Positions 34,314 through 57,748 of a stretch of 64,000 bases of DNA are shown here, piece by piece. Each line of letters starts with the position of its first letter. Within the stretch, counting starts at the first letter, position 1. This stretch comes from an uncultured archaeon (GTDB taxonomy: Archaea; Aenigmatarchaeota; Aenigmatarchaeia; CG10238-14; SCSR01), in assembly GCA_964475145.1 (NCBI GenBank), contig CAYYVK010000001.1, positions 6,328 through 70,327 on the forward strand, given 5' to 3'. The notes beneath the pieces were generated by a model. The model worked only from the letters and a program-made list of their open reading frames with translations. It ran no database searches and had not been told where the DNA came from. A program made the position numbers and the translations under genes.

Positions 34314-34410
34314 GGGCGAGTAGCTTAGCCTGGTGGAGCACAAGTGCTTAATCGCCTTATAAGGCAGCTAAGCTAGCGAGGGGTCGAGGGTTCAAATCCC
34401 TCCTCGCCCA
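34314..34410 (+). tRNA. tRNA (97 nt) with one or more non-canonical insertions/introns; isotype unresolved
   Basis: Perfect acceptor GGGCGAG/CTCGCCC, T-arm GAGGG-TTCAAAT-CCCTC, D-arm GCTT-AGCCTGGTG-GAGC, discriminator A. Anticodon region holds perfect helix GCTTA/TAAGC enclosing 18 nt with nested hairpin GCCT-TATA-AGGC; about 23 nt exceed a 74-nt tRNA. Confidence 0.7.
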
Positions 34411-34442
34411 CTTTTATAGATATTTAAAAGGAATTTTATCTT

Positions 34443-51858: not shown

Positions 51859-53400
51859 TCATCTTTCCAAAACAAACATCTTTTTTGTTATTGGTATTTC
51901 TCTTACTCGATGAATCAACATTTCCCTCTTTTCTCCAATGCCGATAGGAATTTCTTCTGCTAATAAGTTAGAAGCTCTTTCCAGCTTCCTCAGTTTTTCC
52001 GCATAGATTGTGAGAATTTTCTCTTCTTTCTTTACAGGATCTCCAAGTTTCTTGTGTAAAGTTACACCAGCTCCCTTATCTTTTGGTGCTCCTGCTGCTT
52101 TGGCAACCTCGGATATACCCCCATTATCGATCCACAACACTCTCCCATTTTTCTCTGACTTTATATCCAATTTATACGCACCTACCTCCACTTCCTCAGG
52201 ACTTATCTTTTTCCCTCCTTGGGCTTCCATTATTTCATAGAGTTTTTTCATGGCTTTACCAGAGTTTAATGCAGCTTTAGCTAGATTCTCGGAATTTCTT
52301 TTACCCACCATGCTCAGAAGTATTTGTGCTAAAGAGCATACCTTCTCTTCTAGATCGCTTACAATTCTTCTTCTTGAAATGACTTCTAAAGCCTCCCTTG
52401 CTTCAAGAGCAGGACCTATCGAATAGCCTACAGGCTGTTCCCCATAAGTAACAGCGCACTGAACTTTTATTCCAACCCTTTTCCCAAGCTCTATAAAATC
52501 TTTTGCTAACAAATCTGCATCTCCTATAGTCTTAATTTTTGCTCCTCTACCAGTAGGTATATCTATCACCAAATGTGTAGCTCCAACCGCTTTTTTCTTT
52601 GCCATTATAGATGGTAGAAGAAGAGGATCTATACCAAGAGGGTATTCTATCTGAATGAATATATCGTCTGCAGGGGCTAGCTGTAAAGTGCCTCCCCAAA
52701 CTATGCAACCGTTTGTTTTTTCTACCACTTTCTTCATTTCTTCAATGGTTAAGTTAACTGGCATCAAACATCCTGCTCTATCAGCTGTGCCTGCTGGTGA
52801 AGTAATTGCTCTAGAAGATGTCTTTGGTATTGTTAAGCCAAGACAAGCGATTATAGGAACGAGGAGTAGCGTAGTCTTATCTCCTGGCACACCACCTGCA
52901 GAATGTTTATCACAAATAATTTTCCTCTTCAGATTAAGCTTTTTTCCAGTCTCGACCATAGCAATAGATAAGCTTGTAGCCTCGTCTAAGTCTAGTCCAG
53001 TATTGTGAAGAGTGGTAACAAAAGCAGATATTTCTATATCGGTCAAGTTTCTTTCTACAATATCTTTAACAATTTGCTTTATTTCGTCATAGTTCAGTTT
53101 TCTTCCTTTTAGCTTGTTCCTGATGAAATGAAGAGATTGAGGGAATTTTGCAACTTCCACTTCTAACGTTTCTTCCCTTCTTAGCCCAAGGGCTGCTTTG
53201 ACTTCCTCGTACAAGCCTATCGTACCTTTTTCTACTATCTTTTCTGTCACGTTTACTATAGCAGTTACACAATTCTTTTTGTAACCAACCCTAACTCTGT
53301 CAAGACTATGTATACCTAAATCTCCTGCATCCTCCATGTTCAAAATTACTATCGGTTTACCACCCGACTCCAAGCCTAGGAACTTTGCCTTCAAGTTCAT
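51859..53400 (-). CDS. deoA: AMP phosphorylase (thymidine-phosphorylase family, archaeal DeoA-like)
   Basis: 513 aa; N-terminal ~90-aa extension plus glycosyl-transferase family-3 core (SAGGVPGDKTTL; TGRGAKIKT). Confidence 0.8.
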   Translation of the reverse strand: MNLKAKFLGLESGGKPIVILNMEDAGDLGIHSLDRVRVGYKKNCVTAIVNVTEKIVEKGTIGLYEEVKAALGLRREETLEVEVAKFPQSLHFIRNKLKGRKLNYDEIKQIVKDIVERNLTDIEISAFVTTLHNTGLDLDEATSLSIAMVETGKKLNLKRKIICDKHSAGGVPGDKTTLLLVPIIACLGLTIPKTSSRAITSPAGTADRAGCLMPVNLTIEEMKKVVEKTNGCIVWGGTLQLAPADDIFIQIEYPLGIDPLLLPSIMAKKKAVGATHLVIDIPTGRGAKIKTIGDADLLAKDFIELGKRVGIKVQCAVTYGEQPVGYSIGPALEAREALEVISRRRIVSDLEEKVCSLAQILLSMVGKRNSENLAKAALNSGKAMKKLYEIMEAQGGKKISPEEVEVGAYKLDIKSEKNGRVLWIDNGGISEVAKAAGAPKDKGAGVTLHKKLGDPVKKEEKILTIYAEKLRKLERASNLLAEEIPIGIGEKREMLIHRVREIPITKKMFVLER

Positions 53401-53774
53401 GCTACACTACACACTCCTTCTATACATTTGCATGACAAAGAAGGTTTTGGAGAAATTATCTGAGGGCAAATAACCTTAAATCCGCTACATGTAACGTTAC
53501 TCCTTTTGTTTATGCATTCCCAATTGGCTCCGGCTGTCTCTGGACAACAATTAGTGGAAAGCCATTCACAATCTGTATCAAAAGTGCATGAACGAATTAT
53601 CTCAGGTGTATGAACTGGTATTGTAGTTGATGGAGCTGTGGTCGTGGTTGTTGTCCCTATAGTTATTTGTGTGACGCATAAATTTTTCTGGACAGATTTT
53701 AGAAAGATCCAGAAGCCGATCAACATAGTTAAAATGGTGAAAAGGATATAAGGAGTACACCTTCTTACCTTCAT
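53397..53774 (-). CDS. small secreted/anchored Cys-rich protein with poly-Thr linker
   Basis: 125 aa; N-terminal TM/signal, TTTTTTAPSTT linker, 11 Cys in final 60 aa; 4-nt overlap with deoA start. Confidence 0.4.
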   Translation of the reverse strand: MKVRRCTPYILFTILTMLIGFWIFLKSVQKNLCVTQITIGTTTTTTAPSTTIPVHTPEIIRSCTFDTDCEWLSTNCCPETAGANWECINKRSNVTCSGFKVICPQIISPKPSLSCKCIEGVCSVA

Positions 53775-53849
53775 AAGTTAAATTTTGTTATCTGAAAATA
53801 AATGCTTAGGAAGACATTTTCTTGAGTGCCAGCCTCAAAAGATTAGAAG

Positions 53850-55091
53850 TTATCTGGAAGAAACAAAACCAAACTTGTTTAATGCTAGCTTGAGTTCTTT
53901 ATGTGTCTTGGAATACTCTTGTAGCGAGATTCCTTCTAATGCAGCATCCAATGCTTGCCTCATTGCGATAGCACCTATTCTTGTTTGAAGAGAGTGTATT
54001 CCACCGCCAGCTTGAACAATGAAATCGTTACCAAATACTTTTATCAATTGAGGTATATGGCCAGGATGCAACCCTCCAGAAGCAACAGGCATAACAGGCT
54101 TAAACTTCCATAGCCCTTCTTTTAACGCTTTACAATTTTCTAAAACTTCTTCCTTCTTCTCAAACATTTTCCCTACTCCTGTGCCTACGTGCAACTGATC
54201 TACACCAACAATTCTCGCAAGCTTTGCAATAACTTTCATGGATATACCATGCTTAGAATTTCTTGTTAGAGCTGCATGCCCTGCCCTATGTGCATGAATA
54301 ACAAGGTTAAAGTCTTGATTCCTTAAAGTCTGCAACGCAGACCAACCTATAGTAATTATGTCAACCATTATATACTCGTTCCCAACGTTCTCCACAGCCT
54401 TGGCACGTTTTAGCATTTCTTGCGTTTCTGCAGTAACGTTTATCATGTATGCTTTCTTCTCACCAGTTTCTTTTTCAGCCTTTTCTTTTGCTTTAAATGT
54501 TTTCTCTAACCTCTTCTCGAACTTATTGAAGTTTTGGCTGCTTAAGTTTTCATCATCTTTTACTATATCAATACCATTAACCCAAGCTTCGTAAGCAACT
54601 TTTACATGTTCTTCTGTTCTTAATCCAATCTTAGGTTTTATTATTGTCCCCAGCAAAGGTCTATTTGTCCTAAAAATTTTCCTTATCCCTTTTATTCCAT
54701 ACTTCGGACCTTTGAAGCTTTTCAGAAGCTTCTCTGGAATTGTTAAATCGACGAGCCTTAAACTTTTTATCTCTTTCATGCCAAAGATGTTTCCTGCCAC
54801 GCTAGAGAGGATCTGAGGAATATTTCCAGGTTCAAAAAGCTCAACAGGATAAGCAACGTTTATTCTTTTTCCCTCAATCTTAAAAACTTTTGCTGCAAGT
54901 TTTCTAACATACTTTTTCTCAGTTTTCACTTCTGTCCACGTTCCAGTCGAGCTCTCTGCAGCAATTGCACCAGCTGCTCTTTCTATACTTGAATTCCCTG
55001 CAGGCTCTAAAACGAATTCACATACCAAATCGTCCTTGCCTGGCTTGTAACCAAGGTCTACATAGTCTTCGTATCGCACACCATCACCCAA
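53850..55091 (-). CDS. rbcL: ribulose-1,5-bisphosphate carboxylase, form III
   Basis: 413 aa; GTIIKPKIGL, KDDENLSSQ, AGGGIHS-type motifs; clustered with AMPpase and R15P isomerase. Confidence 0.9.
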   Translation of the reverse strand: MGDGVRYEDYVDLGYKPGKDDLVCEFVLEPAGNSSIERAAGAIAAESSTGTWTEVKTEKKYVRKLAAKVFKIEGKRINVAYPVELFEPGNIPQILSSVAGNIFGMKEIKSLRLVDLTIPEKLLKSFKGPKYGIKGIRKIFRTNRPLLGTIIKPKIGLRTEEHVKVAYEAWVNGIDIVKDDENLSSQNFNKFEKRLEKTFKAKEKAEKETGEKKAYMINVTAETQEMLKRAKAVENVGNEYIMVDIITIGWSALQTLRNQDFNLVIHAHRAGHAALTRNSKHGISMKVIAKLARIVGVDQLHVGTGVGKMFEKKEEVLENCKALKEGLWKFKPVMPVASGGLHPGHIPQLIKVFGNDFIVQAGGGIHSLQTRIGAIAMRQALDAALEGISLQEYSKTHKELKLALNKFGFVSSR

Positions 55092-55923
55092 ACCTTTTCA
55101 TAAATTCTTTTGGCGTGAAAATTCCTTTTTCATTCACCAAGTAAGAAACAAGGTCAAACTCTACCAGATCAAAAGCCGGATTTCTCACTTTAATCTTTTT
55201 AGTGTTGATTTTAGAAAAAATTTCAGCATAAATTTCTTCTGCTGGCCTTTCTTCTATCACAAGCTTTTTCCTCTTATCTATCTTTAGAGTATTGCCAACA
55301 ACGATAAATGGTTTTTTCTCTCTTGCAGCTGCTAGCGCAAGGTTTTTTGTACCTATCTTGTTCACTACACCCTTAGGCTCAACAACTCTTATAGCATCTG
55401 TTCCAACTACTACACAATCTACATCTTTCATAAAATAGCTAACAGAATTGTCTGTAATGAGTGTGACAGGTATTCCAATCTTAGAAAGCTCTTTAGCAGT
55501 TTTCACCCCTTGCTCAAGAGGTTCTGTTATCGTAGCAAAAACACGGAATTTTTTCCCTTTTTTCCAGGCATTCTTTAAAACAGATAAAGCTTCACCAGAA
55601 TGACAGTGAGTCATTATTGTATGTCCATTACCAATAAGCTTACTTCCAATCCTTGCAACCCTTTTGGTAGAAGTTTCTAGTCTTTTGATGAGATAGTCTA
55701 TCGTTTTGACACTCTTTTTCTTTTTCAAAATCTCTAAGCAATTGTGTAAAACTACTGCAGTTGGTCTTGCACGCTCAAGTATCATTGCTGCAACCTCAAA
55801 CTTTAAACCAAATCCATACTTCTTACAGAACTTCCTCAAGAATTTTAACGAATACAAAGCAATCTCTTTAGCACCTTGAACTTTCATGCTCTGTATGCTT
55901 TCAGCAACTCTGGAAACATCCAT
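55084..55923 (-). CDS. ribose-1,5-bisphosphate isomerase (eIF-2B alpha/beta/delta-like family)
   Basis: 279 aa; GTDAIRVVEPKGVVNKIGT and CHSG motifs; 8-nt overlap with rbcL. Confidence 0.8.
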   Translation of the reverse strand: MDVSRVAESIQSMKVQGAKEIALYSLKFLRKFCKKYGFGLKFEVAAMILERARPTAVVLHNCLEILKKKKSVKTIDYLIKRLETSTKRVARIGSKLIGNGHTIMTHCHSGEALSVLKNAWKKGKKFRVFATITEPLEQGVKTAKELSKIGIPVTLITDNSVSYFMKDVDCVVVGTDAIRVVEPKGVVNKIGTKNLALAAAREKKPFIVVGNTLKIDKRKKLVIEERPAEEIYAEIFSKINTKKIKVRNPAFDLVEFDLVSYLVNEKGIFTPKEFMKRFG

Positions 55924-55955: not shown

Positions 55956-56627
55956 ATGAAAAGTTCAGAGGAAGAGAGAAAAAGGTTGGTAGAAACTCTA
56001 GAGAAAAGGGGGTATATTCGCAGCAAAGAGGTTAAGGAAGCAATGCTGAAAGTCAAAAGAGAGGACTTTGTTCCAGAAGAATATAAAAAAGATGCTTATC
56101 TAGATACACCACTTCCAATCCCAGGTAATGTAACTATATCTGCACCCCATAGCTAAGGGGAAATGCATGCAATCTCCCTAGAAGCTCTGCAGCTTAAACC
56201 TAGAGAAAAGTTTTTGGAAGTTGGCGCTGGCTCAGGAATAATGCTTGCTTATGCTTACGAAATAATTAGAAGCAAGGAGAAAGTTTTTGGGATAGAGATT
56301 GTTCCAGAAGCTTACAAGTTTGGAAAAGAAAATTTGGAAAAAGCAGGATATGGCAACAAAGTTAAGCTTGTTCTTGGAGATGGTTCTTTAGGATTGCCCA
56401 ACTATGCCCCATTCGATAAGGTCTTAATAAGTGCTGCATGCCCAGATATACCCAAACCGTTAAAGGAGCAGACTAAAGTTGGAGGGAGAATAGTCGCAGT
56501 TATTGGTTTACCACATGGGGATCAACACCTTGTTTTAGTTGAAAAAACAAAAGGTGGAAAATTTTTAAGAAAAAAACTTTTACCTGTAGTTTTTGTTCCG
56601 CTAGTTGGAGAGTACGGATGGAAATAA
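55956..56627 (+). pseudogene. pcm: protein-L-isoaspartate O-methyltransferase (pcm) interrupted by in-frame TAA; either pseudogene or split gene (66-aa N-fragment 55956..56156 and 154-aa C-fragment 56163..56627 with its own AAGGGG RBS)
   Basis: ...TISAPHS*GEMHAISLEALQL versus canonical contiguous TISxPHM; downstream SAM motif LEVGAGSGIMLAYAY. Confidence 0.6.
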
Positions 56628-57646: not shown

Positions 57647-57748
57647 TGGGGTCGACGGGATTCGAACCCGCACACCGAGGTTTCCTCATCAAATCAGAGC
57701 TCCATTCAGCTGGAGCCTCGTGTCACTACCAGGTTAGACGACGACCCC
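57647..57748 (-). tRNA. tRNA-Trp (CCA) with 28-nt intron at canonical 37/38 position
   Basis: GGGGTCG-TC-GTCT-AACCTGGTAG-TGAC-A-CGAGG-CTCCAG[CTGAATGGAGCTCTGATTTGATGAGGAA]A-CCTCG-GTGT-GCGGG-TTCGAAT-CCCGT-CGACCCC-A; intron UGGAG pairs with anticodon loop. Confidence 0.8.

Follow-up and report, generated by a model that had tools for sequence, protein, structure and literature searches.

Guide introns of archaeal tRNA-Trp and a probable 28-nt counterpart

The introns of archaeal tRNA-Trp genes, which have a median length of 65 nucleotides (nt), nest a box C/D small RNA (sRNA) that directs the 2'-O-methylation of C34 and U39 (Cm34 and Um39) (PMC4090602, PMC7994747), and Cm34 has been found in the tRNA-Trp of H. 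volcanii, T. kodakarensis and S. acidocaldarius (PMC7668247). The classical form of this guide is 45-105 nt long and comprises the boxes C, D', C' and D, two 12-nt guides (one for C34 and one for position 39) and a terminal stem that connects C with D. Here we analyse the window, i.e., a whole stretch of 64,000 nt from an uncultured archaeon of the Aenigmatarchaeota, a DPANN group (Nanobdellati), in which a tRNA-Trp(CCA) gene of 102 nt (57647..57748, minus strand, as are all the features of this gene given below) carries one intron of 28 nt. Its sequence suggests a minimal, cis-acting relative of the tRNA-Trp intron C/D guides, built on a single kink-loop (K-loop) and directing Cm34, a reading to which we give a probability of about 0.58.

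The gene matches the Rfam tRNA family (RF00005, 44.3 bits) over the full model (1-71), with a 32-nt insertion within the anticodon loop, and tRNA was the sole family matched in a permissive Rfam scan of the locus. ARAGORN, when run on the window, made no call for a tRNA-Trp at this place. Read as RNA, the gene runs GGGGUCG-UC-GUCU..GAC-A-CGAGG-CUCCAG, the intron CUGAAUGGAGCUCUGAUUUGAUGAGGAA, and then A-CCUCG-GUGU-GCGGG-UUCGAAU-CCCGU-CGACCCC-A. It has the acceptor stem GGGGUCG/CGACCCC, the discriminator A, the T arm GCGGG-UUCGAAU-CCCGU and the anticodon arm CGAGG-CUCCAG...A-CCUCG, and is an archaeal tRNA-Trp of normal form with the anticodon CCA. By direct reading, the 5' exon (57710..57748; tRNA positions 1-37) ends in C32 U33 C34 C35 A36 G37 and the 3' exon (57647..57681) runs from A38 to A73. 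The intron (57682..57709) stands at the canonical 37/38 position, as the first-pass annotation of the locus had stated: excising 28 nt after position 37 restores an anticodon arm of a 5-bp stem, the 7-nt loop CUCCAGA and a 5-bp stem. The gene is 100% identical in three metagenome contigs, and the same locus was seen across several metagenome assemblies.

A candidate guide and a predicted K-loop at a fixed distance

In RNA sense the intron is laid out as CUGAA-UGGAGCU-CUGA-UUUGAUGAGGAA. The first-pass annotation had proposed that an anticodon complement stands at guide distance from a D-like box, and this proposal proved accurate: UGGAG (intron nt 6-10) complements C32-A36 exactly, CUGA (nt 13-16; 57694..57697) starts two nt past it, and G8 (57702), the partner of C34 (57713), occupies the fifth position upstream of CUGA, which makes C34 the predicted 2'-O-methylation site under the N+5 rule. 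The pairing runs on to C11:G31 and U12.G30, and the guide element UGGAGCU (nt 6-12; 57698..57704) faces the target strand G30 G31 C32 U33 C34 C35 A36 (57711..57717) in the fold of minimum free energy (MFE). The same annotation took UGAUGA, two nt past CUGA, for the C-like box. This string is present (nt 19-24; 57686..57691) and offers an alternative register for a K-loop, but comparative data favour AUGAGGA (nt 21-27; 57683..57689) as the functional box. In this second register, which is that of the whole family described below, the box agrees with box C at 6 of 7 positions and CUGA is an exact box D. The predicted pairs are G23.A16, A24.G15, G25.U14, G26:C13 and A27:U12, with G15 and A16 of CUGA in sheared pairs, and the loop would consist of U17-U22 (57688..57693), in which G20, A21 and U22 are L1-L3. 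The palindrome GAGCUC (nt 8-13) was considered as a dimerisation site and rejected, being conserved only among close relatives.

The arrangement recurs across DPANN archaea

From GTDB, we took one genome for each species and scanned it with a pattern made of exon sequence only (CTCCAR, a gap of 25-55, a T loop and CCCCA), which leaves the content of the intron unspecified. The scan gave at least 120 loci; once bacterial false positives were dropped, the matches listed held 113 records with 102 distinct introns of ~11-42 nt. Within this set, the motif UGGR-N4-UGA-N2..16-RUGA is present in 30 of the 102 distinct introns, compared with a frequency of 0.0003 among shuffled introns, and all 8 hits labelled Aenigmatarchaeota carry it. 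When the spacer between UGGR and UGA was freed to 0-8 nt, it was exactly 4 in 30/30 carriers, i.e., the N+5 spacing seen for G8:C34 in the window is invariant. Wherever the lineage label of a carrier is informative, the carrier belongs to the Nanobdellati (DPANN), bar two Methanosarcinales-labelled bins from third-party annotation (TPA). Next to Aenigmatarchaeota they include many Woesearchaeota and Nanoarchaeota, Parvarchaeota, Candidatus Haiyanarchaeum and one metagenome-assembled genome (MAG) of Micrarchaeota; several carrier bins are labelled merely 'archaeon' or 'uncultured archaeon'. Other intron types were found in Asgard, Thaumarchaeota, Bathyarchaeia, Methanococci and most Micrarchaeota.

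The same exon-only pattern was used to sample longer tRNA-Trp introns (45-75 nt) from metagenomes. Both scans combined gave the arrangement in 44 distinct sequences, ten of them longer ones from the metagenome scan, which we call K-turn-type introns after the kink-turn (K-turn) described below. From the 5' to the 3' splice site, their plan is a spacer of 2-11 nt, UGGAGC, two variable nt, UGA, a loop of 2-6 nt or a hairpin of 2-3 bp, N-A-U-G-A, and a tail of 1-41 nt usually ending in GAAGAA. Lengths vary freely in the 5' spacer (2-11 nt), between the boxes (2-14 nt) and in the tail (1-41 nt), and the distance from guide to box is constant. In one subgroup of Nanoarchaeota, UGGAAA replaces UGGAGC and the pairing is moved to positions 33-37.

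Close relatives of the window were followed through the 691-aa FlaJ/TadC-like membrane protein encoded next to the tRNA gene, whose named homologues come solely from MAGs of Candidatus Aenigmarchaeota / Aenigmatarchaeota. Where this protein is 89% identical (L005) the intron has a 29-nt version, and where it is 83% identical (L006) a 25-nt version. The tRNA-Trp gene is kept at the syntenic spot next to the 691-aa protein only in L005 and lies elsewhere on the contig in L006; in the relatives with 55% and 47% identity, no tRNA-Trp was found within 4 kb of the protein.

The first-pass annotation had wavered between a minimal cis guide and a coincidence of motifs. In favour of coincidence, the individual boxes are short, and CUGA-N1..8-UGAUGA alone was recreated by 210 of 500,000 shuffles of the window intron. 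However, the complete arrangement UGGAG-NN-CUGA-N1..8-UGAUGA was recreated by 1 of 2,000,000 mononucleotide shuffles, and the family motif is found in 30/102 introns against 0.0003 in shuffles. We thus regard chance motifs in an ordinary short intron as refuted, with a negligible residual probability: recurrence, the invariant N+5 spacing and the covariation described below exclude a coincidence and support a cis guide, and the motifs of the window intron are almost certainly functional.

Some relatives have unusual features elsewhere in the gene. The tRNA-Trp of L006 (2246-2358, minus strand) also has a second insertion of ~13 nt (AAACGAAAGGCUGAAAC) in the variable region, which is probably a second, non-canonical intron. 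Upstream of the anticodon arm, two other K-turn-type loci (L055 and L060) do not resemble a normal 5' half: neither an acceptor nor a D arm can be recognised, and they may contain further introns or be split genes.

Covariation supports a K-turn in one register

Covariation was assessed in the 44 distinct K-turn-type sequences, where RUGA is invariant by virtue of the search pattern. The second nt after RUGA (position 4b) and the first nt of the NUGA box (position 4n) are Watson-Crick partners in 38 of them (C:G 9, A:U 16, U:A 13); the mean after shuffling was 14.2, and 38 was reached in 0/20,000 shuffles. When the segment between the boxes is at least 6 nt long, its end nucleotides pair as well (G:C 19, C:G 7) and the next pair covaries too. 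Moreover, L2 is an A in 40/44 sequences and 3n, the nt before the GA of the first box, is a U in 36/44. At the level of sequence, this pattern reads as the signature of a K-turn, with a canonical (C) stem, a 3-nt bulge ending in U, tandem G.A pairs and a non-canonical (NC) stem, such as box C and box D form in C/D guide RNAs. In many relatives a hairpin of 2-3 bp gives a standard K-turn; the window form, with a loop in place of the hairpin, would be a K-loop.

The first-pass annotation had suggested a covariation search for a K-turn between UGAUGA and CUGA. The covariation found joins CUGA to the AUGAGGA register, through 4b:4n, and the UGAUGA register shows none: its positions 4 and 5 do not covary, L005 has CGAUGA, and the register is impossible in L006 because it uses the first GA of GAUGA and L006 has AAUGA. 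We therefore rejected UGAUGA as the conserved register.

A close structural likeness is the K-loop of the C'/D' motif of archaeal C/D sRNAs (Nolivos 2005, as cited in PMC1865073 and PMC5558902). There, likewise, a D-type box is followed by a few nt and a C-type box, a loop stands in for stem I, the G.A pairs are sheared and in tandem, and a U protrudes; L7Ae binds motifs of this kind. In contrast to the sRNA motif, that of the window is the sole K-motif of its intron, without a terminal C/D K-turn partner.

Predicted fold of the candidate guide onto the anticodon arm of the precursor

The nt following UGGAG pairs with tRNA position 31 in 33/44 K-turn-type sequences (G:C 27, U:A 2, C:G 4), a count that 0/20,000 shuffles reach. 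Since position 31 normally pairs with position 39 in the anticodon stem, this pairing points to a guide-type alternative fold and not to a splicing helix. The predicted MFE structure of the precursor is consistent with it: the cloverleaf with the helix 32-36:i6-10 and the K-loop stem has -36.9 kcal/mol, versus -27.2 kcal/mol for the cloverleaf alone. In the short forms of Aenigmatarchaeota, the 3-nt spacer and G37 make up a GAAA or GUAA tetraloop that caps the guide hairpin. The complementarity of the guide extends from N+1/N+2 to N+7, i.e., 6-7 bp including one G.U, and is intramolecular; typical C/D guides have ~10-12 nt.

These features bear on where the guide would act. According to reviews, the intronic C/D ribonucleoprotein (RNP) of H. 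volcanii acts in trans and archaeal introns are circularised (PMC4090602, PMC7994747), so that one can conceive of an excised intron RNP, linear or circularised, that methylates other pre-tRNA-Trp molecules or the spliced tRNA-Trp. However, an intermolecular duplex of 6-7 bp would be weak, and the shortest members (L040, L129) use the exon nucleotide A38 in the NC stem of the K-turn, which is lost on excision. The tetraloop of G37 and the 3-nt spacer caps an intramolecular hairpin, which argues for a fold in cis. Action in trans is thus improbable. We consider it more improbable still that the intron is a functionless, decaying remnant of a full-length C/D intron. DPANN genomes are reduced, and some DPANN tRNA-Trp introns (L021, L024, L054, L073) have wholly lost the box elements, as decay would predict; yet the invariant spacing, together with compensatory changes in several DPANN phyla that affect 4b:4n, position 31 and the hairpin between the boxes, indicates that the element is under ongoing selection.

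Longer tRNA-Trp introns link the short form to classical C/D guides

Among the longer introns, 44 distinct ones have a D'-like box, a loop or hairpin, a C' box and a 12-nt spacer with UGG at positions 6-8, which is N+5 of the D position; the distance from RUGA to UGGR is exactly 8 nt in 44/44. The D box is degenerate in many of them. Some (e.g., L154, L163 and L248) are textbook four-box RNAs of the classical kind, in which the C34 guide occupies the stretch from C' to D and has its G at position 8 of the spacer. These metagenome introns, together with what Singh and colleagues reportedly observed, assign C34 to the D guide of the classical form. A few others (L161 and L240) have the layout (D'-hairpin-C')-12-nt guide-(D-loop-C), i.e., the module of the window with a second K-turn ahead of it at the canonical distance of 12 nt, and L188 and L214 look alike by visual reading. 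As the longer tRNA-Trp introns have UGGAG at N+5 of D, the short form can be tied to the known C/D system. The window intron thus appears as the smallest member of a graded series from the classical to the short form, one that seems to retain the C34 guide and a loop-closed D/C K-motif without the second K-turn and the second guide.

Compared with the intron-encoded pre-tRNA-Trp guide of Pyrococcus (sR50) and Haloferax volcanii (Omer 2000, Clouet d'Orval 2001, Singh 2004, as cited in PMC7994747 and PMC4090602), the window intron has the same host gene and the same 37/38 site. It also shares with the classical form the UGGAG(C) antisense element, the N+5 position relative to C34 and the K-turn-forming GA/GA boxes. 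It differs from this form by its 28 nt, one D-like and one C-like box, a 6-nt loop and a duplex of 6-7 bp, with no box 12 nt upstream of the guide and no second guide: the 28 nt hold one box pair, there is no second C'/D' motif ~12 nt away, and the 7 nt found 12 nt before CUGA belong to the exon (GCUCCAG). Because it has no second motif and a short guide, the intron falls outside the complete box C/D RNAs, and should be described as working like one half of a box C/D guide.

Such halves have been engineered. The half-mer or hemi-complex C/D RNPs of Hardin and Batey (2006, PMC1635284) likewise have one K-turn and one guide, recruit fibrillarin and methylate, but they are man-made and work in trans, and their positional specificity is lost in vitro, whereas the element of the window is natural, would act in cis and has a strictly conserved N+5 register. 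Among natural systems, Nanoarchaeum equitans, also a DPANN archaeon, has permuted or circular C/D sRNAs and a C/D sRNA in a tRNA-Met intron (PMC3491384). Here too, C/D elements lie within a tRNA intron and the box order is unlike the linear C...D, but these RNAs are full-size (~66 nt), have two motifs and are either in tRNA-Met or free-standing. The three other tRNA introns of N. equitans are described simply as considerably shorter (PMC3491384). In the literature searched, we found no description of a short K-turn-type class of tRNA-Trp introns.

The D' guide of five four-box introns (L163, L179, L200, L232 and L248; e.g., AAAUAGGGUCGU) appears by eye to complement the 3' acceptor strand ACGACCC of the same tRNA and not the position-39 region. 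If this reading holds, the second target would seem to be a different one in that lineage.

Splicing of K-turn-type introns

In other taxa, 37/38 introns of canonical type carry GGAG at intron positions -6 to -3 and so form a perfect 4-bp central helix with CUCC, a register that agrees with published work (PMC4090602). K-turn-type introns have GAAG or GAGG at that place, and C34 is always opposite an A. In the window, the central helix would consist of C32:G26, U33.G25, the mismatch C34.A24 and C35:G23, with no h' helix. The position of the intron is canonical, but the canonical bulge-helix-bulge (3-nt bulge, 4-bp helix, 3-nt bulge) is not predicted. When forced, a bulge-helix-bulge gives -25.8 to -26.5 kcal/mol and is less stable than an open loop. 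The same is true of all the short forms of Aenigmatarchaeota. Longer K-turn-type forms have an h' of 3-5 bp that joins the U-rich spacer and the purine-rich tail. The K-loop and the central helix are mutually exclusive because both use the same GA(R)G strand. Splicing after positions 35, 36 or 38, assessed by hand against the scored 37/38 motif, was discarded because it gives no better bulge-helix-bulge.

These results bring in an alternative in which the K-loop is an L7Ae-binding structural module for the folding or splicing of the pre-tRNA, with no role in methylation, and the helix between UGGAG and the anticodon is simply the central splicing helix. For example, a kinked intron could let a relaxed DPANN endonuclease reach the 5' site in the hairpin loop and the 3' site at the three-way junction. 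For the short forms no canonical bulge-helix-bulge is predicted, with -1 to -4 kcal/mol versus -10 to -16.5 kcal/mol for the guide conformer. In the stable fold, the helix 32-35:GGAG has the anticodon stem on one side and, on the other, the 5' splice site at two nt into the loop, which resembles a bulge-helix-loop. An L3 insert in the DPANN splicing endonucleases (EndA) has been linked to relaxed motifs and to disrupted tRNA genes (PMC5829648), and a single K-turn is enough for L7Ae and atypical for the targeting of fibrillarin. Yet a structural module leaves unexplained why the box lies at N+5 of C34 in every member, and why the guide pairs with position 31 at the cost of the anticodon stem. 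Furthermore, longer relatives have a near-canonical splicing motif with an h' helix in addition to the K-turn, UGGAG is also at N+5 in the classical C/D tRNA-Trp introns, and a K-turn-dependent tRNA splicing motif is without precedent in the literature searched. We consider this alternative unlikely, if less so than trans action or decay.

A proposed half guide that would act before splicing

Under the preferred reading of a minimal cis-acting guide, the intron nt 6-11/12 (UGGAGC[U]) would fold in the precursor onto positions 36 to 31/30 as a hairpin of 6-7 bp. The adjacent CUGA and AUGAGGA would form the K-loop with its tandem sheared G.A pairs and bind L7Ae, Nop5-fibrillarin would dock on it, and the 2'-OH of C34, paired to the fifth guide position upstream of CUGA, would be methylated. 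The RNP would have to leave before the splicing endonuclease can remove the intron, since the 3' strand of the K-loop (GAGG) is the sole possible partner for the central helix of a bulge-helix-bulge.

For the proteins that this mechanism calls for, there is indirect evidence. Fibrillarin (COG1889) and Nop5 (COG1498) are among 38 single-copy markers of completeness for archaeal genomes, DPANN included (PMC9258230), the DPANN archaeon N. equitans expresses 27 C/D sRNAs (PMC3491384), and L7Ae is an archaeal ribosomal protein that binds K-turns and K-loops (PMC1865073, PMC1635284). With phmmer and approximate query sequences, the loci fetched for the comparison gave fibrillarin and Nop5 in Thorarchaeota only and L7Ae in L213, with none in the loci of Aenigmatarchaeota.

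Several points weigh against a methylation guide. The guide duplex has just 6-7 bp, part of which requires the stem pairs 30:40 and 31:39 to be opened, and the window intron has a single K-turn. The archaeal hemi-complex with one K-turn methylates in vitro with loss of site specificity (PMC1635284). Complementarity to the anticodon is undiagnostic when taken alone, because any 37/38 intron needs it for the splicing helix. Family-wide the boxes are degenerate, one being NUGA and the other RUGA with one covarying pair, and the stable conformer of the predicted fold buries both splice sites. The same phmmer queries found no homologue of fibrillarin, Nop5 or L7Ae among the open reading frames (ORFs) of the window, and no classical C/D sRNA was picked up there by a box pattern whose internal boxes were tolerant.

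A wider proposal can be made more tentatively, at odds that we put somewhat below even: natural 'half' C/D RNPs with a single K-turn may exist and may be general for tRNA-Trp throughout DPANN, a K-loop with a cis guide of 6-7 bp may suffice for Cm34, and assembly and release of the RNP may gate splicing. Because the K-loop and the splicing helix share one strand, the RNP would control the removal of the intron and provide a checkpoint in which modification precedes splicing; the second half of the Nop5-fibrillarin dimer would be left unanchored or be shared between two precursors.

Regarding gene neighbourhoods, we observed a nop5-fibrillarin operon within ~1-2 kb of the tRNA-Trp gene in three Thorarchaeota MAG contigs (L063, L086, L101), and a truncated fibrillarin ORF at the contig edge, with nothing more of the operon seen, in a fourth (L120). 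The methylation machinery thus lies near the gene of its classical tRNA substrate in the first three. The tRNA-Trp introns of these four have 33-34 nt and are of a different type.

Possible consequences for C/D guides and for tRNA gene finding

To our knowledge, archaeal C/D guides have been regarded as two-sided by necessity. If real, a one-sided guide conserved in nature would reveal the minimal functional unit in vivo, and would be informative because the one-sided complex loses site specificity in vitro (PMC1635284). It would also offer a model substrate of 22-42 nt for structural work. The tRNA-Trp intron guide, known from few archaea, would extend to several DPANN lineages, namely Aenigmatarchaeota, Nanoarchaeota/Woesearchaeota, Parvarchaeota and one Micrarchaeota-labelled MAG, and there would be a reason why reduced DPANN genomes retain the intron of tRNA-Trp.

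The guide hairpin also defeats gene finders. Among 32 DPANN loci of K-turn-type tRNA-Trp (e.g., L040 2809-2902, L053 3463-3562 and L076 1869-1967), ARAGORN, as run in this analysis, missed 29 and called the other three 'tRNA-???' with the anticodon gaaa, i.e., it mistakes the GAAA tetraloop of the guide hairpin for an anticodon loop. In a 2026 preprint, tRNA-Trp is listed as 'missing' in 30/123 complete genomes of Woesearchaeales and 9/54 of Pacearchaeales, and it is plausible that introns of this class are the cause.

Genomic context and other observations in the window

The window has a G+C content of 37% and encodes archaeal ribosomal proteins, a thermosome, form III RuBisCO, AMP phosphorylase and archaeal pilus-type genes. 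An exact-protein look-up of the nitroreductase that neighbours the tRNA locus gave no match. Adjoining the locus, a cluster of AMP phosphorylase, form III RuBisCO and ribose-1,5-bisphosphate isomerase (51859-55923, minus strand) corresponds to the archaeal nucleotide-salvage CO2-fixing pathway and is conserved in the relatives L001, L002 and L005. The gene of a protein-L-isoaspartate O-methyltransferase (PCMT; 55956-56627, plus strand) is split into ORFs of 66 aa and 154 aa by a 12-nt insert, AGC TAA GGGGAA, which lies between ..ISAPH and MHAIS... and holds a stop and a GGGG resembling a ribosome-binding site. In the 89% relative L005 (2226-2898), an insert of 13 nt occupies this position, which shows that the split is conserved and rules out an assembly error.

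A second tRNA-like gene (34314-34411, plus strand; Rfam tRNA, 43 bits) has a 38-nt insertion in the anticodon arm and is called 'tRNA-???' with the 4-nt anticodon taat by ARAGORN. No removal of a single intron, with either a short or a long variable arm, yields a canonical 5-7-5 anticodon arm, and the gene may contain two introns or have a non-canonical structure.

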